A DNA stretch of 64,000 nucleotides from Dromaius novaehollandiae (GCF_036370855.1 NC_088128.1:356899-420898), one strand, 5' to 3'; positions 3,995 to 53,380 are shown, counted from the first letter of the stretch. The notes: a model not told the origin generated them from the sequence alone. Made by a program: numbers and translations.

Positions 3995-4131
3995 ATGGCG
4001 GCCCCCCCGGGCGCGCTGCTGGCCGGCGGCGCCGCCTTCTTCCCGGGGCTCTTCGTGGCGGCGCGCGCGGCGCTGCGGCGGCTGCCGGGGCTGCGCTGGC
4101 CCGAGCCCGACGCCGTCATCGTGGCCGCCCG
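3995..4131 (+). CDS. TLCD3B: TLC-domain protein (FAM57/TLCD3 family), coding exon 1: MAAPPGALLAGGAAFFPGLFVAARAALRRLPGLRWPEPDAVIVAA-R(split codon). Donor GTAACG at 4132.
   Basis: ATG at 3995 in GC-rich context. The N-terminus matches my recollection of the FAM57 motif 'GGALFFPGLFA...R'. The exon ends CG|gtaacg (phase 2), and the first G of exon 2 completes Arg. It lies downstream of a GC-box array promoter. Confidence 0.7.
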
Positions 4132-4139
4132 GTAACGGC

Positions 4140-6540
4140 GGGGGGGGCGGACACCGGGGGGGGGGGGACACCGGGGGGGGGGACACCGGCGGGGGGGGGA
4201 CAGTGAGGGGACAGCGAGGGGACAGCGGGGATGGGGACAGTGAGGGGACAATGAGGGGACAGTGAAGGGACACCGGGGATGGGGACAGTGAGGGGACATT
4301 GACACCATGGGGACAGCGAGGGGTCACTGAGGGGACACTGAGGGGACACCGGGGGGGGACAGCGGGGATGGGGACAGTGAGGGGACAATGAGGGGACAGC
4401 GAGGGGACACCGGGGGGGGACAGTGAGGAGACAGCGAGGGGACAGCGGGGACGGCGAGGGGACAGTGAGGGGACAGTGAGGGGACAGCGAGGACACCAAG
4501 GGGACAGGGACGGGGATGGGGACAATGAGGGGACATTGACACCATGGAGACAGGGACAACGAGGGGACACCGGGGATGGGGACAGTGAGGGGACATTGAG
4601 GGGACAGTGAGGGGACACCGGGGGGGGGACACTGAGGGGACAGCGAGGGGACAGCGGGGATGGGGACAGTGAGGGGACACCGGGGATGGGGACAGTGAGG
4701 AGACAGCGAGGGGACAGCGAGGGGACAGCGGGGGGACATTGACACCAAGGGGACAGCGAGGGGACACCAGGGATGGGGACAGTGAGGGGACAGTGAGGGG
4801 ACACTGAGGGGACAGTGAGGGGACACCGGGAGGGGGGACAGCGAGGGGACACCGGGGATGGGGACAGTGAGGGGACAGTGAAGGGACAGCGAGGACACCA
4901 AGGGGACAGGGACGGGGATGGGGACAATGAGGGGACGTTGACACCATGGAGACAGGGACAACGAGGGGACACCGGGGATGGGGACAGTGAGGGGATAATG
5001 AGGGGACAGTGAGGGGACACCGGGAGGGGGGACAGTGAGGGGACAGGGATGGGGACAACGAGGGGACATTGACACCATGGGGACAGGGGCAACAAGGGGA
5101 CACCGGGGACAGAAAGGGGACAGTGAGGGGACACCAGGAGGGGGGACAGCGAGGGGACACTGGGGATGGGGACAGTGAGGGGACAGCGAGGGGACACCAG
5201 GGATGGGGACAGCGAGGGGACAGCGAGGGGACAGTGAGGGGACAGTGAGGGGACACCAGGGACAGTGAGGGGACAACGAGGGGACATTGACACCATGGGG
5301 ACGGGGACAACGAGGGGACACTGGGGACGGTGAGGGGACACCGGGGATGGGGACAGTGAGCAGACACCGGGGGGGGACACTGGGGACAATGAGGGGACAC
5401 CATGGGGATGGGGACAATGAGGGGACACTGAGGGGACGAGGGAGCATTGACACCATGGGGACAGGGACAACGAGGGGACACCGGGGATGGGGACAATGAG
5501 GGGACAGGGACGGTGAGGGGACAACAAGGGGACACCGGGGACAGTGAGGGGACACCGGGGGGGGTCACCAGGGACACCATGGGGACGGGGGCGGTGTGGG
5601 GACAACGAGGGGACACCGGGGACACTATGAGGACGGGGATGGGGACACGAAGGGGATGGGGACACTGTGGGGACAATGAGGGGACGACAGGGACACCGTG
5701 GGGATGGGGATGGTGTGGGGACAACAAGGGGACAGGGACACCAAGGGGACGTTGACACCATGGGGACGGGGATGGGGACAATGAGGGGACATTGATACCA
5801 TGGGGACAGGGACGGGGACAACGAGGGGACGGGGACAACGCGAGGACAGGGACATCCTCGGGACAGGGACGCCATGGGGACAGGGACAACGGGGACATGG
5901 GGACATCATGGGGACAGGGACACCACAGGGATGGGGACAGGGACAATGAGGGGACAGGGCCACTGTGGGGACAGGGACAGCATGGGGATGGGGACAGGGA
6001 CGGGGACAACAAGGGGACAGGGACATCATGGGGATGGGGACAACAAGGGGATGGGGACGGGGACCCCATGGGGATGGGGACAACGAGGGGACAGGGATGG
6101 GGACACCGTGGCGACGGGGACACCCTGGGGTTGGGGACACCTTGGGGACAGGGATGGCAGCAGCCGGGGGGGGGACGGGGCGGCTGCCGGTGGCCTTGTC
6201 CCCCCGTGTCCCCTCCTGTCCCCTGTGTCCCCTCCTGCCCCCGGCGTCCCCATCCCCCGCTGTCCTTTGACATCGATGTCCCCGACGTCCCTTGGTGTCC
6301 TCGTCCCTGTCCCTAGATGTCCACCCCCGTGTCCCGGGTGTCCCCAGCGTCACCGGCCTTGATGTCCCCATCCTTGTCCCCATCCCTGATGTCCCCAATG
6401 TCCCCAACGTCCGTGTCTGTGTCCCTTTGTGTCCCCAACGTCCGTGTCCCTCAGTGTCCCCGGTGTCCCCGAGGTCCCTGTCCCCGTCCCCGGTGTCCCC
6501 GGTGTCCCCCGCCCCCCCTGACGTCCCCAATGTCCCCCCC
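4140..6540. repeat. (GGGGACAGTGA / GGGGACACCGG)n minisatellite filling TLCD3B intron 1. The orientation flips at about 6170-6190 to (TGTCCCC)n, which forms the polypyrimidine tract of the exon 2 acceptor.
   Basis: Direct reading of the sequence. The six-frame 'ORFs' of 765 and 649 aa on the minus strand here are repeat translations. Confidence 0.9.
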
Positions 6541-6544
6541 CCAG

Positions 6545-6628
6545 GCTGGTGTCCTCGGTGCAGGCCATCATGGCCTCCACGGCCGGTTACATCATCTCCA
6601 GCTCCTGCCACCACGTCATCGATGACCA
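6545..6628 (+). CDS. TLCD3B: TLCD3-family coding exon 2: (R)LVSSVQAIMASTAGYIISSSCHHVIDD-Q(split)
   Basis: Acceptor ccccccccag|G at 6543-6544, preceded by a long (TGTCCCC)n pyrimidine tract. Donor CA|gtgagt at 6629. Phase is consistent with exons 1 and 3. Resembles FAM57 '[28 protein letters not shown]'. Confidence 0.7.
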
Positions 6629-6639
6629 GTGAGTCACCG

Positions 6640-8800
6640 GGGGGGACACCGGGGCCTGGGGGGGACACCGGGACCCATAGGTGCCACCACGAGCCATGGG
6701 TGTCACCAGGACCCGTAGGTGTCACCGGGACCCATAGGTGCCACCACGAGCCATGGGTGTCACCAGGACCCGTAGGTGTCACCGGGACCCATAGGTGCCA
6801 CCACGAGCCATAGGTGTCACCGGGACCCGCAGGTGTCACCAGGACCCATAGATGCCACCATGAGCCATGGGTGTCACCGGGACCCATAGGTGTCACCGGG
6901 ACCTGGGGGTGTCACCGGGACCCATAGGTGTCACCATGACTTGTGGGTGTCACTGGGACCCATAGATGCCTCCATGACCCCTGGGTGCCACCGGGACCCA
7001 TAGATGCCACCATGACCCATGGGTGTCACCATGACCCATAGATGCCACCATGACTTGTGGGTGTCACTGAGACCCATAGATGCCACCAAGACCTGTGGGT
7101 GCCACCAGGACCCATAGATGCCACCATGAGCCACGGGTGTCACCAGGACCCATAGGTGCCACCGGGACCCATAGGTGCCACCAGGACCCATGGGTGCTGC
7201 TAAGACCAACAGGGCACCCCGTCCTGCCCCATAGCACCCATAGGGCCCCATAGGACCCCGGTCCTGCCCCATAGCACCTATAGGGCACCCACAGGGTCCC
7301 AGCCCTGCCCCATAGCACCCATAGGGTCCCAGTCCTGCCCCATAGCACCCATAGGGCCCCATAGGACCCCGGTCCTGCCCCATAGCACCTATAGGGCACC
7401 CACAGGGTCCCAGTCCTGCCCCATAGCACCCACAGGACCCCGGTCCTGCCCCATAGCACCCATAGGACCCCGGTCCTGCCCCATAGCACCTATAGGGCCC
7501 TGCCCTGCCCCATAGCACCCATAGGGCCCCATAGGGCACCCAGCCCTTCCCCATAGCACCCATAGGACCCCGGTCCGGCCCCATAGCACCCATAGGACGC
7601 CAGTCCTGCCCTATAGCACCCATAGGGTCCCAGTCCTGCCCCATAGCACCCAAAGGCCCCATAGAGCACCCTGCCCTGCCCCATAGCACCCACAGGACTC
7701 CCAGCCCTGCCCCATAGCACCCACAGGGCCCCATAGGGCACCCAGTCCTGCCCCGTAGCACCCATAGGGCCCCGGTCCTGCCCCATAGCACCCATAGGGC
7801 CCCGGTCTTGCCCCATAGCACCCAAAGGCCCCATAGAGCACCCAGTCCGGCCCCATAGCACCCATAGGGCCCCCACAGGGTCCCTGCCCCCCCCCCCCGT
7901 CCCCGGCGCCGGCCGCGGTTCAGCACTGGACAGCGCCCGGACGCCTGGGCCCTTCCGAGCGGGGGGAGGGGCAGCGCCCGGACGCCTGGGCCCCGGGAGC
8001 GGCGGCGGCGGGAGGGGGAAGGGCAGCGCCCGGACGCCTGGGCCCCCCTCGGCCTTGCCCTTGGCGGGGATTAGCCCGGCTCGCCCGGACGCCTGGGCCC
8101 TTCCGAGCAGGGGGGAGGGGCAGCGCCCGGACGCCTGGGCTCTTGGAGCGGGGGGAGGGGCAGCGCCCGGACGCCTGGGCCCCCTCGGCCCTGCCCTTGG
8201 CGGGGATTTAGCCCTGAGCAGATGGGGATTAGCCCGGCCCCCCGCCCCCCCCCCCGGACGCCTGGGCCCTTGGCGGGGGCGGTGGGGGGAAGGGGGGGGG
8301 GGGGCCGGACACCTGGGCCCTCTCAGCCTTTTGCCCTTGAGCGGGGGAGGGGATTAGCCTGGCTCCGCCGGACGCCTGGGCCCATGGAACGGGGGAGGGG
8401 CAGCGCCCGGACGCCTGGGCCCCTCCTGGACACCTGGGCCCCTTGGGAGGGGGAGGGGAGCTGCCCGGACACCTGGGCCCCTTCCGGACACCTGGGCCCC
8501 CCGGGAGGGGGAGGGGAGCTGCCCAGACGCCTGGGCCCCACCTGGACATCGGGCCCCTCCCGGACACCTGGGCCCCCCCAGATGCCTCTCCCCCACCCGG
8601 ACGCCTGGGCCCCGCCCGGACACCTGGACCCCCTGGGAGGGGGAGGGGAGGGGCCGCCCGGACGCCTGGGCCCTTCAGGATCATCCAGATCATAGAGTGA
8701 AATTGGGGAGGGGGGATGGGACCACCTGGACGCCTGGGCCCCTTCTGGCCACCTGGGCCCCTCCCGGACACCTGGGCCCTCCCGGACGCCTGGGCCCTCC
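6640..8800. repeat. Consecutive minisatellites in TLCD3B intron 2: (GGTGTCACCGGGACCCATAG)n, (CCCCATAGCACCCATAGGGCCCCGGTCCTG)n, (CAGCGCCCGGACGCCTGGGCCC...)n
   Basis: Direct reading of the sequence. Confidence 0.9.
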
Positions 8801-8843
8801 CTGCACCCCCGCCGAGACGAAGCCCCGCCCCCTCCCCGCGCAG

Positions 8844-9063
8844 GCATTGGCTGGCGGGCGCCTACCCGGCCTTCGCGGTGCCCTACTTCGTCTACGACGT
8901 CTACGCCATGTTCCTCTGCCACTGGCACCGGGGCCGCGTCAAGGGCCACGAGGCCGGGCCACCGCCCTCGCTGCGGGCCGCCGCCGCCGCCTACCTCCGC
9001 AAGGACCTGCTCATGGTGCTCCACCACGCCGCCATGGTGCTCGTCTGCTTCCCCGTGGCCGCC
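8844..9063 (+). CDS. TLCD3B: TLCD3-family coding exon 3 (TLC domain core): (Q)HWLAGAYPAFAVPYFVYDVYAMFLCHWHRGRVKGHEAGPPPSLRAAAAAYLRKDLLMVLHHAAMVLVCFPVAA
   Basis: Acceptor cgcgcag|G at 8842-8843. Donor GCC|gtgagt at 9064. Conserved TLC-domain motifs are present (YDxYAM, HW, LxxHHAxxL). Confidence 0.8.
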
Positions 9064-10790
9064 GTGAGTGGGGACGGGGCGCGGGGACACGTTGGGGACG
9101 TGGGAACGGCTTGGGGACATGGGGACGTCTTGGGGACGTGGGATGGGGGGCCACCACCATGGGGGAGAGGTTCTCATGGTGGCTGCCATGGTTCCCGTTG
9201 GCCATCATGAGTGGGGACAGGGCTTGGGGACACCTTGGGGACATGGGGACATCTTGGGGACGTGGGATGGGGGGCCACCACCTTGGCGGAGATGTTCCCG
9301 TGGTGGCCGCCATGGTGGTTGTCTACTTCTCTTTGGCCACTATGAGTGGGGACAGGGCTTGGGGACACCTTGGGGACATGGAAATGGCCTGGGGACATTT
9401 GGAACATCTTGGGGACGTGGGATGGGGGGCCACCACCATGGGGGAGATGTTCTCGTGGGGGCCGCCATGGTGCTCATCTGCTTCCCTGTGGCCGCCGTGA
9501 GTGGGGACGGGGCTTGGGGACACGTTGGGGACGTGGGAACGGCTTGGGGACATGGGGACGTCTTGGGGACGTGGGATGGGGGGCCACCACCATGACGGAG
9601 ATGTTCTCGTGGGGGCCGCCATGGTGGTTGTCTACTTCTCTTTGGCCATCATGAGTGGGGACAGGGCTTGGGGACACCTTGGGGACGTGGAAACGGCTTG
9701 GGGACATGGGGACGTCTTGGGGACGTGGGATGGGGGGCCACCACCATGGGGGAGAGGTTCTCGTGGTGGCCGCCATGGTGCTCGTCTGCTTCCCCGTGGC
9801 TGCCGTGAGTGGGGACGGGGCTTGGGGACACGTTGGGGACGTGGAAGTGGCTTGGGGACATTGGGAACGTCTTGGGGACGTGGGATGGGGGGCCACCACC
9901 ATGGGGGAGAGGTTCTCATGGTGGCCGCCATGGTTCTCCTTTGGCCACTATGAGTGGGGACAGGGCTTGGGGACACCTTGGGGACATGGGGACGTCTTGG
10001 GGACGTGGGATGGGGGGCCACCACCTTGGCGGGGAGGTTCTCGTGGTGGCCACCATGGTGGTTGTCTACTTCTCTTTGGCCATCATGAGTGGGGACAGGG
10101 CTTGGGGACATCTTGGGGACGTGGAAATGGCTTGGGGACATTGGAACGTCTTGGGGACATGGGATGGGGGCCACCACCTTGGCCGGGAGGTTCTCATGGT
10201 GGCCGCCATGGTGCTCATCTGCTTCCCCGTGGCCGCCGTGAGTGGGGACGGGGCGCGGGGACACGTTGGGGACATGGAAACAGCCTGGGGACATGGGGAC
10301 GTCTTGGGGACACCAAGATGGCTCAGGGGTGGAGGAACGTCTTGGGGACGTGGGATGGGGGGCCACCACCATGGGGGAGATGTTCCCATGGTGGCTGCCA
10401 TGGTTCTCCTTTGGCCACTATGAGTGGGGACGGGGCTTGGGGACACCTTGGGGACATGGAAACGGCTTGGGGACATGGGGATGTCTTGGTGACATGGGAT
10501 GGGGGGCCACCACCATGGGGGAGAGGTTCTCATGGTGGCCGCCATGGTGGTTGTCTACGTCTCTTTGGCTGCCGTGAGTGGGGACGGGGCTTGGGGACAC
10601 CTTGGGGACATGGAAATGGCTTGGGGACATGGGGACGTCTTGGGGACATGGGATGGGGGGCCACCACCATGGCGGAGATGTTCCCATGGTGGCCACCACG
10701 GTTCCCCTTGGCCACCACGAGTGGGGACAGGGATCGGGGCCACCGTGGGGGTTGGGGCCCCCCCGGGTTGGCCCCCCCGGGCCCTCGTGT
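9064..10790. repeat. Array with about 140-bp unit and about 425-bp higher-order repeat in TLCD3B intron 3. Each higher-order copy contains a copy of the last 40 or so nt of exon 3 plus its GTGAGT donor.
   Basis: 'gccgccatggtgctcatctgcttcccYgtggcYgccgtgagtggggacgggg' at 9455-9500, 9765-9812 and 10197-10245. Degenerate copies (ATGAGT) at 9215, 9340, 9645 and 10075. Confidence 0.85.
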
Positions 10791-10832
10791 CCCCGTGTCA
10801 CCCCGTGTCCCCCCCCCCCCCCGTGTCCCCAG

Positions 10833-10928
10833 CTGTGGCGCCAGGGCAAGGGCGACTTCTTCCTGGGCTGCCTGCTCATGGCGGAGCTCAGCACCCCCTT
10901 CGTCTGCCTCGGCAAGGTGCTCGTCCTG
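10833..10928 (+). CDS. TLCD3B: TLCD3-family coding exon 4: LWRQGKGDFFLGCLLMAELSTPFVCLGKVLVL
   Basis: Acceptor ccccag|CTG at 10831-10832. Donor CTG|gtgagc at 10929. Phase 0 to 0. Conserved 'GDFFxGC...AELSTPFVxLG' motif. Confidence 0.8.
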
Positions 10929-10929
10929 G

Positions 10930-11960
10930 TGAGCCGGACGCCGGGGCCCCTCGGGGGCGGGGCCGGGACGCCGGGGCCCCTCGGGGGGACGGGAGGGCCC
11001 CCGGACGCCTGGGTCCCTCGGGAGGACGTGGGTGGGGTGGGAGGAACCTGGGACGCCTGGGCCCCTCGGGAGGACGTAGGGGTGAATTGGGGCCCCCACC
11101 CACCCGGACACCTGGGCCCCCGGACGCCTGGGCCCCTCGGGAGGACGTAGGGGTGAATTGGGGTCCCCGGACGCCTGGGCCCTTCGGGAGGACGTAGGGG
11201 TGAACCAAGGCCCCCACCCACCCGGACACCTGGGCCCCTGGGTGCTTGGACACTTGGGCCCCCCACGCTGTTGGCCGCCCGGACGCCTGGGCCCCTGCAC
11301 ACTTGGGTCCCCGGACACCTGGGCCCCCGCTCTCTTGGCCACCCGGACACCTGGGCCCCTTGGGAGGCCATAGGGGTGAACCAGGGCCCCTGGACACCTG
11401 GGTGCCCGGACGCCTGGGCCCCTGCATGCTTGGGTCCCCGGACACCTGGGCCCCTTGGGAGGTCATAGGGGTGAACCAGGGCCCCCGGACGCCTGGGCGC
11501 CCGGACGCCTGGGTCCCCGGACACCTGGGCCCCTTGGGAGAACATACGGGTGAACCAGGGCCCCTGGAACCTTGGGTCCCCGGACGCCTGGGCCCCTGGG
11601 TGCTTGGACACTTGGGCCCTCTCTCTCTTGGCCACCTGCTCCCCCGGAACCTGGGGTGCCCGGACGCCTGGGCCCCCCGCGCCGTTGCCTGCCCGGACAC
11701 CTGGGCCCCTTGGGAGGCCAGAGGGGTGAATCAGGGCCCCCGGACACCTGGGCCCCCGGACACCTGGGCCCCTTGGGAGGTCATAGGGGTGAACCAGGGC
11801 CCCTGGAACCTTGGGTGCCCGGACACCTGGGCCCCTGGGTGCTTGGACACTTGGGCTCCCTCTCTCTTGGCCACCTGCTCCCCCGGAACCTGGGGTGCCC
11901 GGACGCCTGGGCCCCCCGCGCCGTTGCCCGCCCGGACGCCTGGGCCCTCCCCCCCTCCCC
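10930..11960. repeat. About 60-bp minisatellite (CCGGACGCCTGGGCCCCTCGGGAGGACGTAGGGGTGAATTGGGGCCCC) in TLCD3B intron 4
   Basis: Direct reading. It shares the 'cggacgcctgggccc' core with the 7900-8800 array. Confidence 0.9.
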
Positions 11961-11971
11961 GCCCCGGCTAA

Positions 11972-12256
<285 letters not shown>

Positions 12257-12289
12257 CGGCGGGGGGGGGCGGGGGGCACCCTTGGGTGC

Positions 12290-13300
12290 GGGGGGTGGTG
12301 TCCTGGGAGCATCCTTGGGTGGCCCCAAGATGGCGGTTGCGGCGTAGGAGCACCCTTGGGTGGCCTCAAGATGGTGGCCATCGCCTAGAAGCGCTTTTGG
12401 GTGCTTTCAGGGTGGTGGCCATCTTCTAGGAGCACCCTTGGGTGTTCTCAAGATGGTGGTTGTGTCCTAGGAGCTCTTTTGGATGTTCTCAAGATGGTGG
12501 CCATCTCCTGGGAGCACTCTTGGGTGTCCCCAAGATGGCGGCCATCTCCTAGGAGCGCTCTTGGGTGTCTTCAAGATGGCGACCATCTCCTACAAGCACT
12601 TTTGGATGTTCTCAAGATGGTGGTCATGTCCTGGGAGCACCCTTGGGTGGCCTCAAGGTGATGGCCATCGCCTAGAAGCACTTTTGGATGTTCTCAAGAT
12701 GGTGGCCATGTCCTAGGAGCACCTTTGGGTGCTTTCAGGGTGCTGGCCATCTTCTAGGAGCGCCCTTGGGTGTCCTCAAGATGGTGGTCATCTTCTGGGA
12801 GCACCCTTGGGTGTCCTCAAGATGGCGGTTGTGTCATAGGAGCACGCTTGGGTGTTCTCAAGATGGTGGCCATCACCTAGAAGCGCTTTTGGGTGTCCTC
12901 AAGATGGTGGTCATCTTCTGGGAGCACTCTTGGGTGTCCCCAAGATGGTGGTCATGTCTTAGGAGCACCCTTGGGTGTTCTCAAAATGGCGGTTGTGTCG
13001 TAGGAGCACCCTTGGGTGGCCTCAAGATGGTGGCCATCTCCTGGGAGCACCTTTGGGTATTCTCAAGATAGTGGTCATCTTCTGGGAGCACCCTTGGGTG
13101 TCCTCAAGATGGTGGCTATCTCTTAGAAGCACTTTTAGATGTTTTCAAGATGGTGGCCATGTCCTGGGAGCACCCTTGGGTGTTGGGGGGCGTGGTGGGT
13201 GTCTCTTGGGAGCACCCTTGGGTGTCCCCAAGGTGGTGGCCATCTCCTAGAAGCACTTTTGGATGTTCTCAAGATGGTGGCCATGTCCTAGGAGCGCCCT
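12290..13300. repeat. 41-bp minisatellite of about 24 copies, each carrying a YY1-like AAGATGG(C/T)GGCCATC motif, in the TLCD3B 3' UTR
   Basis: Unit 'ctaggagcacccttgggtgttctcaagatggtggccatctc'. Exact AAGATGGCGGCC at about 12530 and 12330. Confidence 0.85.
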
Positions 13301-13475
13301 TGGGTGTCACCAGCCCCCCCCGGGTGCCCCCAGCGTCCCCAGGACCGTAGCAGCACCCAGGGGTGCCCTCGGGGTGGGGCCCCGGGCCAGTAGCAGCCCC
13401 CCGGGGACGCCTGGGCCCCCTGGGGACGCCTGGGCCCCCCCCGGGGCGGCGCCGCGCAGCAGCAATAACCTCAGT

Positions 13476-13539: not shown

Positions 13540-14170
13540 CGCGCCGCCCCCGCGACCCCCCCCACCCAGTGACATCACGGCCCAACCTGGTGACATCACG
13601 CCCCCGCCAGGTGACATCACACCCCTTGCGCCGCCCCTGATATTGCGCCCCAGCCCGATGACATCACACCCCCAGCCCAGTGACGTCACGCCCCGGCCTG
13701 GTGACATCACTCCCTCACTTTGTGACATTGCGGCCCAGCCCGGTGATGTCACGCCCCCTGCGCCACCCCCTGACATCATGGCCCAGCCCGGTGACATCAT
13801 CATTCCCCCCCCCAGCGCTGCCTTGTGACATCACAGCTCCTGCCCCCTCCAGCCCTATGACATCACAGCCCCTGACGCCCAGCTCTTGTGACCTCACAGG
13901 CCCCAACACCCCCAGGGCTATGACATCACAGCCCAGGCCCCCCCCCGCCAGCCCAATGACATCACACCCAAGCGTCCCCCCCCGCGACCTCATTGGTCCC
14001 TACGCTCCCCCAGCCATGACATCATACTCAAGAACCCCCCCCGCTGTGACCTCACAGGCCCCAACACCCCCCAAGGGGTTATGACGTCACAGCTGCCCGC
14101 ACCCCACCTTAATGACATCACAGCACCCCCATGACATCATCACCCCCCTGCTGACATCACCGCCATGACA
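13540..14170. repeat. About 33-bp minisatellite of about 19 copies built on CRE-like TGACATCA(C) / TGACGTCA motifs, between the convergent TLCD3B and MVP 3' ends
   Basis: gtgacatcac repeated. Canonical palindromic CRE gtgacgtcac at 13680 and 14083. Confidence 0.85.
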
Positions 14171-24649: not shown

Positions 24650-27600
24650 TGGGGACGTCGCCAAGGTCTCCGTCACCGTCACCGTCATCACCGTGGCCAC
24701 CATGGCCACCAACCCGGCCACCGCCACGGCCCCCGCGGCCCCCGGATCCCCGCCAACCTCGAGGTGGACCCCCATCCCGGACGTCCTCAACGTCTCCAAC
24801 ATCCCTGATGTCCCCAACGTCCCCAATGGTCTCCAAGTCGCCCATCCCCGATGTCCCCAACACCCCCAACATTCCTCATATCTTCAATGTCCCCAATGTC
24901 CCCCGGATCCCTGCTATCCTCGAGGTGGACCCCCATCCCTGACATCCTCAACATCTCTGATGACCCCAATGTCCCCCATGTCTTCAATGGCCCCAACACC
25001 AACGTTCCTGATGGCCGTGACATCACCAATGTGCTCAATGTCCCCAATGTCCCCCAGATCCCCACCAACCTCGAGGTGGACCCCCATCCCGGACGTCCTC
25101 GACGTCTCCAACATCCCTGATGTCCCCAACGTCCCCAATGGTCTCCATGTTGCCCATCCCCGATGTCCCCAACACCCCCAACATTCCTCATATCTTCAAT
25201 GTCCCCAGTGTCCCCCGGATCCCTGCTATCCCCGAGGTGGCCCCCCATCCCTGACGTCCTCGACATCTCCAACATCCCTGATGTCCCCAACGTCCCCAAT
25301 GGTCTCCATGTTGACCATCCCCGATGTCCCCAACACCCCCAACATTCCTCATATCTTCAGTGTCCCCAATGTCCCCCGGATCCCCGCCAACCTCGAGGTG
25401 GACCCCCATCCCGGACATCCTCGACATCTCCAACATCCCTGATGTCCCCAACGTCCCCAATGGTCTCCATGTTGACCATCCCCAATGTCCCCAACACCCC
25501 CAACATCCCTGATGTCTTCAGTGTCCCCAGTGTCCCCCGGATCCCTGCTATCCTCGAGGTGGACCCCCATCCCGGACGTCCTCGACATCTCCAACATCCC
25601 TGATGTCCCCAACGTCCCCAATGGTCTCCATGTTGACCATCCCCGATGTCCCCAACACCCCCAACATTCCTCATATCTTCAATGTCCCCAATGTCCCCCG
25701 GATCCCTGCTATCCTCGAGGTGGACCCCCATCCCGGACATCCTCGATGTCTCCAACATCCCTGATGTCCCCCATGTCCCCAATGTCGCCCATCCCTGATG
25801 TCCCCAACACCCCCAACATCCCTGATGTCTTCAGTGTCCCCAATGTCCCCCGGATCCCTGCTATCCTCGAGGTGGACCCCCATCCCGGACGTCCTCGATG
25901 TCTCCAACATCCCTGATGTCCCCAAAGTCCTCAATGTCGCCCATCCCCGATGTCCCCAACACCCCCAACATCCCTGATGTCTTCAGTGTCCCCAATGTCC
26001 CCCGGATCCCTGCTATCCTCGAGGTGGACCTCCATCCCTGACATCCTCAACATCTCTGATGACCCCAATGTCCCCCATGTCTTCAATGGCCCCAACACCA
26101 ACGTTCCTGATGGCTGTGACATCACCAATGTGCTCAATGTCCCCAACGTCCCCCAGATCCCCACCAACCTCGAGGTGGACCCCCATCCCGGACGTCCTCG
26201 ACGTCTCCAACATCCCTGATGTCCCCAACGTCCCCAATGGTCTCCATGTTGACCATCCCCGATGTCCCCAACACCCCCAACATTCCTCATATCTTCAGTG
26301 TCCCCAATGTCCCCCGGATCCCTGCTATCCTCGAGGTGGACCCCATCCCTGACGTCCTCGACATCTCCAACATCCCTGATGTCTCCCATGTCCCCGATGT
26401 CCCCAACACCAATGTTCCTGATGGCCCCGACGTCACCAATGTGCTCTATGTCCCCAATGTCCCCCGGATCCCCGCCATCCCCGAGGTGGCCCCCAATCCC
26501 TGATGTCCTCAACACCTGTGACATCTCTGATGTCCCCCATGTCTCCCATGTCCCCCATGTCCCCAACACCAATGTTCCTGATGGCCCCGACATCACCAAC
26601 ATGCTCTATGTCCCCAATGTCCCCCAGGTCCCTGCCATCCCCGATGAAGCACCCCATCCCCGATGTCCCTGATGTCCCCAACCCCCCCGATGTCCCCAAC
26701 ATCCCCGGCGCCTCACCGGGCCTCAACACCTCCAACATCCCTGATGACCCTGATGCCCTCGATGTCCCCAATGTCCCCCACGTCTCCGCCATCCCCGAGG
26801 TGGCTCCCCATCCCCGACGTCCCCAATGTCCCCAACCCCCTCCATGTCCCCAACGTCCCTGGTGCCTCACTGGGCCTCAACACCCCTGACATCCCCGATG
26901 TCCCCGATGCCCTCAATGTCCCCAATGTCCCCCAGATCCCCACCATCCCTGAGGTGGCCCCCCATCCCCGACGTCCCCCCCGATGTCCCCAACGCTCCCA
27001 ACGTCCCCACTGTCCCTGGCGCCTCACCGGGCCTCAACAGCCCCGACATCTCCGATGTCCCTGACGCCCTCAATCTCCCCAATGTCCCCCAGGTCCCCGC
27101 CGTCCCCGAGGTGGCCCCCCATCCCTGCCATCCCCGCTGTCCCCAACATCCCCGCTGTCCCCAGCACCTCCCTGGGCCTCAACACCCCCGACATCCCCGA
27201 TGTCCCCAATGTCTCCGATGTCCCCCAGCTCCCTGCCATCCCCGAGGTGGCCCGCCATCCCCGATGTCCCCAACCCCCCCGATGTCCCCAATGTCCCCGG
27301 CGCCTCACCAGGCCTCAACACCTCCAACATCCCCGATGTCCCCGATGCCCCCAATGTCCCCCACGTCCCCACCGTCCCCGAGGTGGCCCCCCATCCCCAA
27401 CGTCCCCGCTGTCCCCCCCGCTGCCCCCAATGTCCCCGGTGCCTCACCGGGCCTCACCGGGCCTCAACACCCCCGACATCCCCAATGTCCCTGATGCCCT
27501 CAATGTCCCCGATGTCCCCCACGTCCCTGCCATCCCCGAGGTGGCTCCCCATCCCCGATGTCCCCGATGTCCCCAACCCCCCGATGTCCCCAACGTCCCC

Positions 27601-27760
27601 GGCGCCTCACCGGGCCTCAACACCTCCAATGTTCCTGATGTCCCCAATGTCCCCGATGTCCCCCAGCTCCCCGCCGTCCCCGAGGTGGCCCCCCATCCCC
27701 GACGTCCCCGTCCCCCCCGACGTCCCCGACGTCCCCGTTGTCCCCAACGTCCCCGGCGCC
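24650..27760. repeat. Minisatellite (CCCCAATGTCCCCGATGTCC, about 160-bp higher-order repeat) in an MVP intron
   Basis: Direct reading of the sequence. Confidence 0.9.
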
Positions 27761-40399: not shown

Positions 40400-43090
40400 A
40401 AGAACAACGAGCAGCCGCTGACCCTATAGGGACTATGGAAAAGCCCCTGCTGCAGAGCGGCTGAGGAGGTGGGGCTATAGGGGCCATGAAGGGCCCATAG
40501 GGGCCATGAGGGGACGCTGTAGGGGCTATAGGGGCTATAGGTACCTGCTGGAGCTGCTCGCCGGGGGAGAGGGGGAAGGGCTCCTGGGCCAGGCGCACCT
40601 CCAGGTCGCCGTGGCGCAGCCGCATAGGGGCTATAGGGACCACAAAGGGGCCATAGGGACCAGAAGAAGTGCTATAGGGGCCATAGGGGCTATAGGTACC
40701 TGCTGGAGCTGCTCGCCGGGGGAGAGGGGGAAGGGCTCCTGGGCCAGGCGCACCTCCAGGTCACCAGGGCGCAACCGCATAGGGGCTATAGGGACCACGA
40801 AGGGGCCATAGGGACCAGAAGAAGTGCTATAGGGGCCACAGGGGCTATAGGTACCTGCTGGAGCTGCTCGCCGGGGGAGAGGGGGAAGGGCTCCTGGGCC
40901 AGGCGCACCTCCAGGTCACCAGGGCGCAGCCGCATAGGGGCTATAGGGACCACAAAGGGGCCATAGGGACCAGAAGAAGTGCTATAGGGGCCATAGGGGC
41001 TATAGGTACCTGCTGGAGCTGCTCGCCGGGGGAGAGGGGGAAGGGCTCCTGGGCCAGGCGCACCTCCAGGTCACCAGGGCACAGCCGCATAGGGGCTATA
41101 GGGATCATGTGGGTGCCATAGGGACTGCGGGGGGAGGCTATAGGGGCCATAGGGGCTATAGGTACCTGCTGGAGCTGCTCGCCGGGGGAGAGGGGGAAGG
41201 GCTCCTGGGCCAGGCGCACCTCCAGGTCACCAGGGCGCAGCCGCATAGGGGCTATAGGGACCACAAAGGGGCCATAGGGACCAGAAGAAGTGCTATAGGG
41301 GCCATAGGGGCTATAGGTACCTGCTGGAGCTGCTCGCCGGGGGAGAGGGGGAAGGGCTCCTGGGCCAGGCGCACCTCGAGGTCACCGTGGCGCAGCCGCA
41401 TAGGGGCTATAGGGACCACGAAGGGGCCGTAGGGACCAGAAGAAGCGCTATAGGTGCTATAGGGGCTATAGGTACCTGCTGGAGCTGCTCGCCGGGGGAG
41501 AGGGGGAAGGGCTCCTGGGCCAGGTGCACCTCCAGGTCACCAGGGCACAGCCGCATAGGGGCTATAGGGACCACGAAGGGGCCGTAGGGACCAGAAGAAG
41601 TGCTATAGGTGCTATAGGGGCTATAGGTACCTGCTGGAGCTGCTCGCCGGGGGAGAGGGGGAAGGGCTCCTGGGCCAGGCGCACCTCCAGGTCACCAGGG
41701 CGCAGCCGCGTAGGGGCTATAGGGACCACGAAGGGGCCATAGGGACCAGAAGAAGTGCTATAGGTGCTATAGGGGCTATAGGTACCTGCTGGAGCTGCTC
41801 GCCGGGGTAGAGGGGGAAGGGCTCCTGGGCCAGGCGCACCTCCAGGCCGCCGTGGCGCAGCCGCATAGGGGCTATAGGGACCACGAAGGGGCCGTAGGGA
41901 CCAGAAGAAGTGCTATAGGGGCCATAGGGGCTATAGGTACCTGCTGGAGCTGCTCGCCGGGGGAGAGGGGGAAGGGCTCCTGGGCCAGGCGCACCTCGAG
42001 GTCACCGTGGCGCAGCCGCATAGGGGCTATAGGGACCACGAAGGGACCATAGGGACCAGAAGAAGTGCTATAGGGGCCATAGGGGCTATAGGTACCTGCT
42101 GGAGCTGCTCGCCGGGGTAGAGGGGGAAGGGCTCCTGGGCCAGGCGCACCTCCAGGTCACCGTGGCGCAGCCGCATAGGGGCTATAGGGACCACGAAGGG
42201 GCCGTAGGGACCAGAAGAAGTGCTATAGGTGCTATAGGGGCTATAGGTACCTGCTGGAGCTGCTCGCCGGGGTAGAGGGGGAAGGGCTCCTGGGCCAGGC
42301 GCACCTCCAGGTCACCAGGGCGCAGCCGCATAGGGGCTATAGGGACCACGAAGGGGCCATAGGGACCAGAAGAAGCGCTATAGGTGCTATAGGGGCTATA
42401 GGTACCTGCTGGAGCTGCTCGCCGGGGGAGAGGGGGAAGGGCTCCTGGGCCAGGCGCACCTCGAGGTCACCGTGGCGCAGCCGCATAGGGGCTATAGGGA
42501 CCACGAAGGGGCCATAGGGACCAGAAGAAGCGCTATAGGTGCTATAGGGGCTATAGGTACCTGCTGGAGCTGCTCGCCGGGAGAGAGGGGGAAGGGCTCC
42601 TGGGCCAGGCACACCTCCAGGTCACCGTGGCGCAGCCGCATAGGGGCTATAGGGACCACGAAGGGGCCATAGGGGACCAGAAGAAGTGCTATAGGGGCCA
42701 CAGGAGCTATAGGTACCTGCTGGAGCTGCTCGCCGGGGGAGAGGGGGAAGGGCTCCTGGGCCAGGCGCACCTCCAGGTCACCGTGGCGCAGCCGCATAGG
42801 GGCTATAGGGACCACGAAGGGGCCGTAGGGACCAGAAGAAGCGCTATAGGTGCTATAGGGGCTATAGGTACCTGCTGGAGCTGCTCGCCGGGGTAGAGGG
42901 GGAAGGGCTCCTGGGCCAGGCGCACCTCGAGGTCACCGTGGCGCAGCCGCATAGGGGCTATAGGGACCACGAAGGGGCCATAGGGACCAGAAGAAGTGCT
43001 ATAGGGGCCATAGGGGCTATAGGTACCTGCTGGAGCTGCTCGCCGGGGTAGAGGGGGAAGGGCTCCTGGGCCAGGCGCACCTCGAGGTCA
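40400..43090. repeat. 135-bp tandem array of about 19 copies in the MVP intron downstream of exon c2. Each unit is the last 85 or so nt of exon c2 ([26 protein letters not shown]) plus the CAGCAG|gtacct donor plus about 50 nt of intron.
   Basis: Unit 'gggctataggtacctgctggagctgctcgccgggggagagggggaagggctcctgggccaggcgcacctccaggtcaccgtggcgcagccgcatagg...'. The authentic exon is at 43027-43222. Confidence 0.9.
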
Positions 43091-43222
43091 CCGTGGCGCA
43101 GCCGGGCCTGGCCGGCGCCGTCGAGCAGCGTCTCCCCGCCGGGCGCCCGGGCGGCCGGGTGCAGCACCACGCAGTAGTGCCGCGCCGGCACCGTCACCAT
43201 GCGCGCCGGCGCGAACACCACC
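43027..43222 (-). CDS. MVP: MVP coding exon c2: (R)[65 protein letters not shown]
   Basis: Acceptor ctatag|G (the repeat motif ctatag serves as the 3' splice site). Donor CAGCAG|gtacct. Matches human '[20 protein letters not shown]...[28 protein letters not shown]'. Confidence 0.85.
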
Positions 43223-49999: not shown

Positions 50000-52900
50000 C
50001 CCCCTCACCCCCCTCCCCGCGGATTTATCCCCCCCCGCGGATTTATTCCCCCCCCCCGGGGATTTATTCAACCCCCCCAGGGGTTTACTTCCCCCCCCCG
50101 GGTTTATTCACCCCCCCGGGTTATTTAACCCCCCCGGGGATTTATTCACCCCCCCAGGGGTTTATTCCCCCCCCCAGGTTTATTTACCCCCCCAGGGGAT
50201 TTATTCACCCCCCCCGGGTTTATTCACCCCCCAGGTTTATTTCCCCCCCCAGGTTTATTTACCCCCCCGGGTTTCCCCCCCCCGGGTTATTTAACCCCCC
50301 CCGGGGATTTATTCACCCCCCCAGGGGTTTATTTCCCTCCCCGGGTTTATTTACCCTCCCCGGGTTTATTCACCCCCTCCGGGTTATTTAACCCCCCCGG
50401 GGATTTATTTACCCCCCCCGGGTTTATTTACCCCCCCCGGGGATTTATTCACCCCCCCAGGGGTTTATTTCCCCCCCGGGTTTATTTACCCTCCCCGGGT
50501 TTATTCACCCCCTCCGGGTTATTTAACCCCCCCGGGGATTTATTTACCCCCCCCGGGGATTTATTCACCCCCCCCGGGGATTTATTCACCCCCCCCGGGG
50601 TTTATTCCCCCCCCCGGGTTTATTTACCCCCCCCGGGTTTATTTACCCCCCCCGGGTTTATTCACCCCCTCCGGGTTATTTAACCCCCCCGGGGATTTAT
50701 TCACCCCCCCCGGGGTTTATTCCCCCCCCCGGGTTTATTCACCCCCCCCCGGGTTTATTCACCCCCCCCCGGGTTTATTCACCCCCTCCGGGTTATTTAA
50801 CCCCCCCGGGGATTTATTCACCCCCCCCGGGTTTATTCACCCCCCCCCGGGTTTATTCACCCCCCCCGGGTTTATTTACCCCCCCCGGGTTTATTCACCC
50901 CCTCCGGGTTATTCACCCCCCCCCGGCGATTTATTCACCCCCCCCGGGGTTTATTCACCCCCCCCGGGTTTATTTACCCCCCCCGGGTTTATTCACCCCC
51001 TCCGGGTTATTTAACCCCCCCGGGGATTTATTCACCCCCCCCGGGGTTTATTCCCCCCCCCGGGTTTATTCACCCCCCCCGGGTTTATTCACCCCCCCCG
51101 GGTTTATTTACCTCCCCCGGGTTTATTCGCCCCCCCCGGGTTATTTAACCCCCCCGGGGATTTATTCACCCCCCCAGGGGTTTATTCACCCCCCCCCGGG
51201 TTTATTTACCCCCCCCGGGTTTATTCACCCCCTCCGGGTTATTTAACCCCCCCGGGGATTTATTCACCCCCCCCGGGGTTTATTCCCCCCCCCGGGTTTA
51301 TTCACCCCCCCCCGGGTTTATTCACCCCCTCCGGGTTATTTAACCCCCCGGGGATTTATTCACCCCCCCCGGGTTTATTCACCCCCCCCGGGTTTATTCA
51401 CCCCCCCCGGGTTTATTTACCCCCCCCGGGTTTATTCACCCCCTCCGGGTTATTCACCCCCCCCCGGCGATTTATTCACCCCCCCCGGGGTTTATTCACC
51501 CCCCCCGGGTTTATTTACCCCCCCCGGGTTTATTCACCCCCTCCGGGTTATTTAACCCCCCCGGGGATTTATTCACCCCCCCCCGGGGTTTATTCCCCCC
51601 CCCGGGTTTATTCACCCCCCCCGGGTTTATTCACCCCCCCCGGGTTTATTTACCTCCCCCGGGTTTATTCGCCCCCCCCGGGTTATTTAACCCCCCCGGG
51701 GATTTATTCACCCCCCCAGGGGTTTATTCACCCCCCCCGGGTTTATTTACCCCCCCCGGGTTTATTCACCCCCTCCGGGTTATTTAACCCCCCCCGGGGA
51801 TTTATTCACCCCCCCAGGGGTTGATTCCCCCCCCAGGTTTATTTACCCCCCCGGGTTTATTCACCCCCTCTGGGTTATTTACCCCCCCGGGGATTTATTC
51901 ACCCCCCCCAGGGGTTTATTCCCCCCCCCAGGTTTATTTACCCCCCCAGGGGATTTATTCACCCCCCCAGGGGTTTATTCACCCCCCCGGGTTTATTTAC
52001 CCCCCCGGGTTTATTCACCCCCTCCGGGTTATTTAACCCCCCCCGGGGATTTATTCACCCCCCCAGGGGTTGATTTCCCCCCCCGGGTTTATTTACCCCC
52101 TCCGGGTTATTTAACCCCCCCCCCGGGGATTTATTCCCCCCCCTGGTTATTTAACACCCCCCAGGGATTTATTTCCCCCCCCGGGGGGTTATTCCCGCCC
52201 CCCCGGGTTTATTCACCCCCCCCGGGGATTTATCCCCCCCCCAGGTGGGTTATTTCCCCCCCTGGGATTTATCCCCCCCCCAGTTCATTAACCCCCCCGA
52301 GGCGGGTTATTTCCCCCCCCCGGGTGTTTATTCGCCCCCCGGGTGTTATCGCCCCCCCCCGCGTTATTCACACCCCCCAAGTTTATTTACCCCCCCAGGG
52401 GGGTTATTCGCCCCCGCCTGGGTTTATTCCCCCCCCGGGGTTATTCACCCCCCCCAGGGGATTTATTTCCCCCCCCGGGTTTATTCACCCCCTCCGGGTT
52501 ATTTAACCCCCCCCGGGGATTTATTCACCCCCCCAGGGGTTTATTTTCCCCCCCAGGTTTATTCACCCCCCCAGGGGGTTTATTCCCCCCCCGGGTTTAT
52601 TCGCCCCCCCCCGGGTTATTTAACCCCCCCGGGGATTTATTCCCCCCCCCGGGTTATTTAACACCCCCCAGGGATTTATTTCCCCCCCGGGGGGGTTATT
52701 CCCGCCCCGGGGTTTATTCACCCCCCCCGGAGTTATTCCCCCCCCCGGGTTTATTCACCCCCCCCGGGGATTTATCCCCCCCCCAGGTGGGTTATTTCCC
52801 CCCCGAGGTTTATCCCCCCCTGGGTTCATTAACCCCCCCCGAGGCGGGTTATTTCCCCCCCCCGGGTGTTTATTTGCCCCCCCGGGTGTTATCGCCCCCC

Positions 52901-53380
52901 CCCGCGTTATTCACACCCCCCAAGTTTATTTACCCCCCCAGGGGGGTTATTCGCCCCCCCCCCGGGTTTATTCCCCCCCCGGGTTTATTCCCCCCCCGGG
53001 GTTATTCACCCCCCCCAGGGGATTTATTCCCCCCCCCCGGGTTTATTCACCCCCTCCGGGTTATTTAACCCCCCCCGGGGATTTATTCACCCCCCCAGGG
53101 GTTTATTTCCCCCCCCAGGTTTATTTACCCCCCCGGGTTTATTCACCCCCTCCGGGTTATTTAACCCCCCCGGGGATTTATTCACACCCCCCCCGGGTTT
53201 ATTCACCCCCCCCAGGTTTATTTACCCCCCCCGGGGTTATTCACCCCCCCAGGGGATTTATTTCCCCCCCCCGGGTTTATTTGCCCCCCCGGGTTTATTT
53301 CCCCCCCCCGGGTGTTTATTCGCCCCCCCGGGTGTTATTGCCCCCCCCCGGGGTTATTCACCCCCCCCCCCCCGGGCGGC
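50000..53380. repeat. About 19-20-bp minisatellite (CCCCCCGGGTTTATTCA)n of about 170 copies. Every unit carries AATAAA on the minus strand.
   Basis: Direct reading. GGGTTTATT(C/T)A units. The reverse complement is TGAATAAACCC. Confidence 0.9.

Follow-up and report, generated by a model that had tools for sequence, protein, structure and literature searches.

Minisatellites that begin within an exon and carry its 5' splice site into the adjacent intron are known from human genes. Borensztajn et al. (2006; PMC1557585) described a set in which the first monomer spans the exon-intron boundary and the donor is reiterated: intervening sequence (IVS) 7 of F7 (37 bp), intron 2 of IFI6/6-16 (25 pseudo-sites), IVS13 of CBS, LMNB2 (100 bp repeated 10-15 times) and intron 4 of PDGF (81 bp repeated 16-18 times). 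In 50 F7 constructs the pseudo-sites were functional yet silent, the upstream-most site being chosen and no repressor element being found; the choice was distance-dependent and fitted exon definition in part. Identical reiterated donors are silent in F7 IVS7, LMNB2 and PDGF, and in IFI6 and CBS only the first two of the pseudo-sites are also used (PMC1557585). For birds, Hron et al. (2026, Genome Biol Evol; PMC12954441) introduced the terms "sequence stuttering" and "exon stuttering" for chicken dot chromosomes, the latter affecting 236 introns in 115 genes, with 190 introns located on dot chromosomes. The source lies within one base of an exon border in more than 90% of cases, the exon parts measure 20-187 bp, copy numbers range from 1 to 44, the spans have a median of 1,751 bp, and individuals differ extensively in intron length. 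The copies include splice sites, "potential alternatively spliced transcripts" are mentioned, and the expansions were inferred to be recent and species-independent (PMC12954441). Here, we describe an array of this kind in intron 3 of TLCD3B (FAM57B), in a 64,000-nt stretch of Dromaius novaehollandiae DNA (GCF_036370855.1 NC_088128.1:356899-420898; "the window", with positions counted from its first letter). In all probability it represents exon stuttering, in the form of a minisatellite that spans an exon-intron boundary on a bird microchromosome rich in GC and dense in repeats.

The window is bird DNA of 68% G+C and holds an intact five-exon TLCD3B on the + strand. Exons 1 (3995-4131), 2 (6545-6628), 3 (8844-9063), 4 (10833-10928, translating as LWRQGKGDFF...GKVLVL) and 5 (11993-12256, ending with the stop codon) are bordered throughout by AG and GT and join into an intact open reading frame of 266 amino acids. 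Exon 3 is 220 nt long, ends in phase 0 and translates into a match to bird FAM57B/TLCD3B, with its AG acceptor at 8842-8843 and its GT donor at 9064; its 3' end reads CAC CAC GCC GCC ATG GTG CTC GTC TGC TTC CCC GTG GCC GCC. The peptide of exons 3 and 4 is 92-95% identical to bird FAM57B proteins (97% to Apteryx owenii in alignment, 95% by BLASTP) and matches the Pfam TLC domain, and the full-length protein has its top match, at 87% identity, in crowned crane. The name of the gene and the numbering of the intron, first proposed in a sequence-only reading of this DNA, are thereby upheld. Intron 3 (9064-10832, + strand) is about 1.77 kb long and ends in an unrepeated, C-rich tail (10761-10832) with a polypyrimidine tract and a CAG acceptor.

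From its first base to position 10759 the intron consists of 11 full units of 135-182 bp and a truncated twelfth, all on the + strand, as delimited by regular-expression search, Tandem Repeats Finder (TRF) and unit alignment. The sequence NNGAGTGGGGAC occurs 12 times in intron 3 and on the + strand only, at 9064 (the authentic donor), 9207, 9342, 9497, 9651, 9805, 9950, 10085, 10238, 10420, 10574 and 10717. The proposal that the array is built from the end of exon 3 plus its 5' splice site is confirmed. Each unit opens with the initial ~100 nt of the intron, in which TGGGGAC is frequent, continues with a segment GGGATGGGGGGCCACCACC... and closes with exon sequence, copied from the terminal 36-63 nt of exon 3, to which NNGAGTGGGGAC is joined; identity among the units is 80-95%. 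The exonic part of the founding unit corresponds to the last 63 nt of exon 3 (9001-9063, + strand; nhmmer and alignment), from which the exon-like segment of every intronic unit derives. The intronic copies of the window match the exon from about -36, with a 9-nt deletion further up, and those of other birds from about -63; the copies extend to exon position -1 and continue through GTGAGTGGGGAC.

The units fall into three classes in the order A-C-B, A-B, A-C-B, A-C-B, C, so defining a higher-order repeat on the + strand. Block alignment gives block 1 (9064-9496, 433 bp, 93.9% identical to block 3), block 2 (9497-9804, 308 bp, a dimer without the short unit and 94.5% identical to block 1 over 308 aligned bases), block 3 (9805-10237, 433 bp) and block 4 (10238-10716, 479 bp), with mutual identities of about 92-94%. 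The period of roughly 425 bp proposed beforehand was thus close to the measured 433 bp, to which one 308-bp dimer and one 479-bp block must be added. The first unit of block 4 retains a 38-nt segment, ACGTCTTGGGGACACCAAGATGGCTCAGGGGTGGAGGA, which looks ancestral because it is common to units of tinamou, penguin, skua and godwit. In TRF, the periods over 9234-10702 come out as 154, 309 and 463. G makes up 43% of the array; TGGGGAC occurs in it 59 times, and 18 motifs with the potential to form G-quadruplexes lie on the transcribed strand. A 20-mer derived from the unit has 10 exact matches within the array and, at up to 3 mismatches, 15 in the whole window, against 0.59 expected from shuffles, which is far above chance; chance and a dispersed satellite were both rejected as sources, the unit being confined to intron 3. 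On the minus strand, five copies of [AG]GGGATGGGGGGCCACCTC[GA] lie at 25233-27700, in or adjoining a 161-bp x 12.5 array (24739-26706); with 3 mismatches they resemble the TLCD3B unit in its GGGATGGGGGGCCACCACC core, and they probably belong to an unrelated G-rich repeat.

The authentic site, GTGAGT in a GCCGCC context (gcc|GTGAGTGG, 9064-9069, + strand), forms the junction CFPVAA|LWRQ that is conserved in all annotated orthologues. The sequence-only reading had noted that the motif ATGGTGCTC(A/G)TCTGCTTCCC(C/T)GTGGC(C/T)GCC|GTGAGTGGGGAC recurs, with at least three intact copies. It does, with donors at 9497, 9805 and 10238, the latter two having been placed 5 nt too far downstream (about 9810 and 10243), and a fourth intact GTGAGT at 10574 had been missed. 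When the copies were re-read, GTGAGT was present at all four of these positions. On the + strand, the site at 9497-9502 is the same as the authentic one from -9 to +17, that at 9805-9810 from -3 to +17, that at 10238-10243 from -20 to +36, and that at 10574-10579, which lies in a diverged B-class unit (GGTTGTCTACGTCTCTTTGGCTGCC|GTGAGT), from -3 to +17. Further copies with a mutated donor had been noted as well; by regular expression and context comparison they comprise six ATGAGT (9207-9212, and at 9342, 9651, 9950, 10085 and 10420) and, in addition, one ACGAGT (10717), all on the + strand. GT is thus kept in 4 of the 11 intronic donor copies and mutated at +1 or +2 in the other 7.

We judged donor strength by exact identity from -3 to +17 and by ViennaRNA energies for the duplex with U1. 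The predicted duplex energies of the four intact pseudo-donors equal that of the authentic site, and given the identity of context any position-based score is equal by construction. To call them "full-strength" nevertheless overstates the case, as the authentic site itself is non-consensus on its exonic side (GCC at -3 to -1) and modelled U1 pairing involves the intronic side only, from +1 to +7. The G at +1 of the donor forms a CpG with the C at -1. CpG transitions are the commonest kind of mutation, and the recurrent change from GTGAGT to ATGAGT therefore needs no selective explanation; older copies would be expected to lose their donor quickly for the same reason. Recursive splice sites were considered and rejected, since the pseudo-donors are preceded by GCC instead of AG and have no abutting pyrimidine tract with AG.

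That the array arose by duplication across the exon-intron boundary, as had been proposed, is supported by units that hold exon sequence, donor and intron start together, and by conservation of the exon end in animals that have no array. The exon end encodes HHAAMVLVCFPVAA, which is invariant or nearly so from fish to mammals, and the peptide HHxxMVLVCFPV is kept over the same range, including turtle, alligator and snake; intron 3 of the tiger snake is about 150 bp long and holds no copy of the exon end. With a conserved exon end and a snake intron free of copies, the comparison shows the repeat to have been made from the exon and not the exon from the repeat. The reverse course, in which the end of exon 3 was recruited from a pre-existing intronic satellite, might be suggested by the abundance of TGGGGAC in other parts of the window (221 copies, including 44 from intron 1). 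It is contradicted by the near-invariance of HHAAMVLVCFPVAA in the exon-like part from fish to mammals, by the repeat-free intron beside an intact exon end in snake, and by the decay of the exon-like part of the repeat with distance and age, which the exon copy does not undergo. We regard such an exonised repeat as refuted and its probability as negligible.

In nine other birds sampled, ranging from tinamou and chicken to manakin, intron 3 is likewise occupied by homologous arrays. The exon 3 end is copied in intron 3 eight times in goose, four times each in Adelie penguin and tinamou, three times in skua, and twice each in speckled pigeon, manakin, godwit and chicken; several of the assemblies compared are short-read and may have collapsed units. 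At the parrot locus, the stretch fetched has 200 N and yielded the exon copy only, without exon 4. Intronic copies of goose, penguin, skua and godwit have in common the derived bases -57 G, -47 A and -45 G, which are absent from all aligned exons of birds and snake and yield "DVLMEVHH" versus "DLLMVLHH". The unit junction ...GGATGGAGGxAxxTCACCTTGGGATG|GAYGTG... is common to the window, penguin, skua, godwit and goose, and in part to tinamou. The introns of penguin, skua and godwit are colinear over their full length, with 75-82% identity, and what distinguishes them is the presence or absence of whole units. Shared derived bases, a shared junction and colinear introns together speak against separate origins and indicate that the array predates the split of palaeognaths, Galloanserae and Neoaves. 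The comparison of orthologous introns that had been suggested for dating thus points, with arrays in nine other birds and none in snake, to an array older than crown birds that has been re-expanding repeatedly. In this history, a tandem duplication that took in the ~60 nt at the end of exon 3, its GTGAGT donor and the opening ~100 nt of intron 3 preceded the crown-bird radiation; the first copy remained the working exon end and donor, and all later copies are intronic.

The same comparison bears on whether the array, or its copy number, could be the product of mis-assembly at a difficult GC-rich locus. GC-rich, G-quadruplex-prone DNA of bird dot chromosomes is notoriously hard to sequence (PMC12954441), and the lower number of units in the short-read skua and godwit assemblies suggests that collapse is common. 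Against this, the units of the window differ by 5-20% in a structured higher-order pattern and are not identical duplicates, homologous arrays stand in nine other bird assemblies with separate GenBank records each, and the ancestral segment in the units is common to other species. We therefore think an artefact very unlikely.

Within this ancient framework the array appears to be remodelled lineage by lineage. A 570-bp block in goose is duplicated at 91% identity, and the chicken array has a period of about 950 bp at 94% identity and an exon breakpoint at -45 (-63 in the others). In 7 of 9 birds at least one intronic copy matches the exon end of its own species together with its own donor variant, as in GCCACC|GTGAGT of goose, pigeon and tinamou, GCCACG|GTGGGG of chicken and GTCGCCACC|GTGAGC of manakin; skua and godwit have no intact decoy. 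A goose copy (locus L001, position 10193) is mosaic, its 5' part being of intron type and its 3' 52 nt identical to the exon, and it lies at the boundary of the duplicated 570-bp block. From these patterns we infer that the exon copy and the intronic copies have traded sequence, by unequal exchange or gene conversion. Such exchange, sometimes involving the exon copy itself, may have remodelled the array in each lineage and, in the Dromaius novaehollandiae genome, would have produced the 433-bp three-unit repeat with four donors identical to the real one.

Several further observations concern copying at this gene in other birds. Exon 3 of the penguin (Pygoscelis locus L002, 10203-10211) carries synonymous CAT GCT where other birds have CAC GCC, and the CATGCTGCC of the penguin exon recurs in the orthologous intronic copy of penguin (10527-10535) and of skua (Stercorarius locus L006, copy at 468); this could reflect gene conversion from intron to exon or two parallel CpG transitions. 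The manakin (Manacus candei locus L004, 960-2520) has a second boundary-spanning array in intron 4, with a period of about 170-240 bp, in which the end of exon 4 and its donor (GGCAAGGTCCTCATCCTG|GTGAGC) are repeated, some copies being intact and some decayed to GGGGAG; it has no counterpart copies in intron 4 of the window. In tinamou and chicken, intron 4 contains copies of the start of exon 5, that is, stuttering on the acceptor side. Tinamou also has copies of the end of exon 5 downstream of TLCD3B, and chicken a partial copy of the start of exon 3 in intron 2. These stuttered copies lie at 5396-5431 and 5846-6367 in tinamou (Nothoprocta locus L009) and at 849-964, 11497-11538 and 14011-14055 in chicken (Gallus locus L010). 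In the window, exons 1, 2 and 4 of TLCD3B have no boundary-spanning copies in their downstream introns.

One could take the exchange further and regard the exon end and its intronic copies as a single, concertedly evolving family, in a pan-avian array more than 100 million years old. Nearly every lineage may then possess at least one decoy that carries the synonymous variants of its own exon together with its donor variant. If exchange were bidirectional, the intronic copies would serve as a reservoir of changes that are written into a coding exon under conservation, and CAT GCT, in the penguin exon and in the intronic copies of penguin and skua, would be a possible trace of such writing. Alternatively, or in addition, the decoys could be retained because they divert some of the transcripts to a stop-containing isoform and so provide TLCD3B with a built-in dosage control. 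We hold this extended reading to be improbable.

How the cell deals with the reiterated donors can be considered from the reading frame. With the first donor in use the frame is intact, and in all the complete annotated proteins examined, from birds, turtle, alligator, squamates and primates, CFPVxx joins LWRQ directly. Were exon 3 to end at a pseudo-donor instead, it would grow by 433, 741, 1174 or 1510 nt (9497, 9805, 10238 and 10574, respectively), and read-through of exon 3 meets its first in-frame stop, TGA, at 9208-9210, inside the decayed donor at 9207, which applies to all pseudo-donors. The spliceosome most likely takes the first donor only, with which exon 3 has its normal 220 nt and directly follows a strong acceptor, and the copies would leave with the intron; occasional use of a copy would bring in the premature stop at 9208, and the transcript would probably be degraded. 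Passive choice of the first donor, with at most minor stop-containing by-products, is the best-supported expectation. The sequence-only reading had reasoned that the pseudo-donors must be actively suppressed or else yield isoforms with pseudo-exons. This dilemma lacks support in the form given, since the identical donors of F7 IVS7, LMNB2 and PDGF are silent through choice of the upstream-most site, with no dedicated repressor (PMC1557585).

A functional use of the decoys may also be imagined, in which they are maintained for regulated unproductive splicing: a switch of donor would add 433-1510 nt with the stop at 9208, exposing the transcript to nonsense-mediated decay and tuning TLCD3B output. 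In its favor are the identity of four decoys to the real donor, the premature stop that follows from every alternative donor, the own-variant decoy in 7 of 9 birds, the age of the array, which predates crown birds, and the use of a decoy donor in a goose Gnomon model. Yet skua and godwit manage without an intact decoy, most old copies have lost GT through the expected CpG transition, and copy number, unit length and duplicated exon span (from -45 in chicken, -63 in others) vary by lineage as they would under drift. The same instability, moreover, has spread over 82% of the window and is seen in hundreds of chicken introns (PMC12954441), and comparable sites are silent in the human precedents (PMC1557585). 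Regulation of this kind is, in our judgment, decidedly unlikely. The array would rather be a tolerated by-product of local instability, in DNA that is G-rich, prone to quadruplex formation and highly recombining, than a functional device.

Pseudo-exons made from the array look unlikely on sequence grounds. With a cut-off of at least 60% C/T, the only AGs in the array that follow a pyrimidine-rich stretch are TGAG|T or CGAG|T sites inside the donor motif, and these candidate acceptors have G at -3 and an interrupted pyrimidine tract, which makes pseudo-exons improbable. The single case worth weighing pairs the TGAG|T acceptor at 9346 with the donor at 9497 and would place a 150-nt stop-free cassette (WGQGLGT...MVLICFPVAA) between exons 3 and 4. 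The segment 9347-9496 is indeed 150 nt long, in frame and free of stops, and pyrimidines make up 72% of the 18 nt that precede the AG at 9346. Its acceptor, however, is GAG, with G at -3 and an interrupted tract, where the real acceptors combine 72-89% pyrimidine with CAG or GCAG; the segment's counterparts in the other blocks either break the frame or include stops; and no annotated bird TLCD3B protein has an insertion at the junction of exons 3 and 4. A 50-residue Gly/Trp-rich insert in the transmembrane TLC domain would, in addition, hardly be tolerated. The cassette is thus a highly improbable exon.

Some points weigh against a tolerated, passively spliced minisatellite of bird-stem age. 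The copy number of the array comes from one assembly and one haplotype. Exclusive use of the first donor is an expectation drawn from protein models and mammalian precedents. The annotated protein and gene models include no insertion at the junction of exons 3 and 4 and two models built from array copies, and as protein database entries are genomic reading frames and gene models they neither prove nor exclude use of a pseudo-donor. One of them, the goose RefSeq Gnomon model XP_066840488.1, starts in the array and splices a pseudo-donor to exon 4. This model ("ceramide synthase-like", 150 amino acids; Anser cygnoides locus L001, 10001-10825) has its ATG within the intron 3 array, runs through degenerate copies of the exon end and joins exon 4 to a perfect pseudo-donor (10253). 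Either the array has misled the annotation here, or the model hints that a pseudo-donor is truly used. At least one perfect decoy of the lineage's own exon persists in most lineages, which fits neutral homogenisation but would fit selection for a decoy as well. Finally, the bird-stem origin is bounded by the snake intron alone.

The surroundings of the gene place the array in a wider context. The sequence-only reading had treated it as a peculiarity of one gene, a view that does not survive: TRF arrays cover 82% of the window, and tandem arrays of this sort are a genome-wide trait of bird dot chromosomes (PMC12954441). About 20 TRF arrays are longer than 600 bp, among them a 155-bp x 17 array with 95% matches (40471-43104) and a 38-bp x 87 array (50015-53368), and the TLCD3B array is special among the large ones only by having begun inside an exon. 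A 123-bp x 8 array at 12301-13308 starts about 45 bp past the TLCD3B stop codon, in the presumed 3' untranslated or downstream region. No Rfam match at the gathering score was obtained in 8000-12500. At the loci of other birds (parrot, goose), ALDOA, KAT8 and KIF22 flank TLCD3B. In the window, a kinesin P-loop exon at about 57394 on the + strand is consistent with KIF22, which would put that gene about 45 kb downstream of TLCD3B as against about 2 kb in goose; other genes or big repeat expansions may lie in the gap.

The general phenomenon and its likely splicing outcome have already been described, and a single locus matters little in itself. What goes beyond the literature is that the TLCD3B array is homologous across crown birds and apparently still exchanging sequence with its exon. 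The comparison of ten birds makes at least one stuttering array old and not a recent species-specific event, which qualifies the view of stuttering as recent and independent. TLCD3B also provides a natural, non-mammalian case in which the precedence of the upstream-most site could be tested in birds: 433-1510 nt downstream of the real donor lie four others that share its sequence over 20 nt, in units much longer than those of F7. On a practical level, the array explains mis-annotation, in that gene predictors can start or splice from its copies (the goose and manakin RefSeq models).

Among described systems, the TLCD3B array stands close to avian exon stuttering. It lies in GC-rich, repeat-dense bird DNA syntenic to genes on chicken chromosome 38, where ALDOA, KAT8 and PPP4C are exon-stuttering genes in the supplement of Hron et al. 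(PMC12954441). It consists of imperfect tandem copies of a coding-exon edge and its splice site running through the neighbouring intron; their source lies directly at the exon border, and its exon part of 36-63 nt falls within the 20-187 bp of chicken. Its 11 intronic copies lie within the range of 1-44, its span of about 1.7 kb is near the median of 1,751 bp, and the coding exon is untouched, with an intact 266-amino-acid reading frame and a canonical junction. It differs from the cases of that paper in not being from chicken (TLCD3B was not found in the accessible part of the supplement text), in being homologous across palaeognaths, Galloanserae and Neoaves, and hence ancient and re-expanding, and in its clear three-unit higher-order repeat. 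With the F7 type it has in common a head-to-tail array whose first monomer is the exon end with the authentic donor, identical donors downstream, a single acceptor faced by all copies and a unit length in the range of LMNB2 and PDGF; by this analogy, selection of the upstream-most site would be the expected outcome for TLCD3B. Compared with the human arrays, its units are longer (135-182 bp) and include much more exon (up to 63 nt versus 4 nt in F7), GT is kept in only 4 of 11 intronic copies, and there is a higher-order organisation; and whereas the human arrays are treated as variable number tandem repeats, the TLCD3B array is conserved at the level of orders across birds. The repeats reported by De Grassi and Ciccarelli (2009; PMC2812944) in human segmental duplications likewise show minisatellite expansion at an exon-intron boundary, with the potential to create cryptic sites or alter gene structure. 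Those cases change exon/intron structure between recent paralogues, whereas in TLCD3B both the coding sequence and the junction are unchanged.

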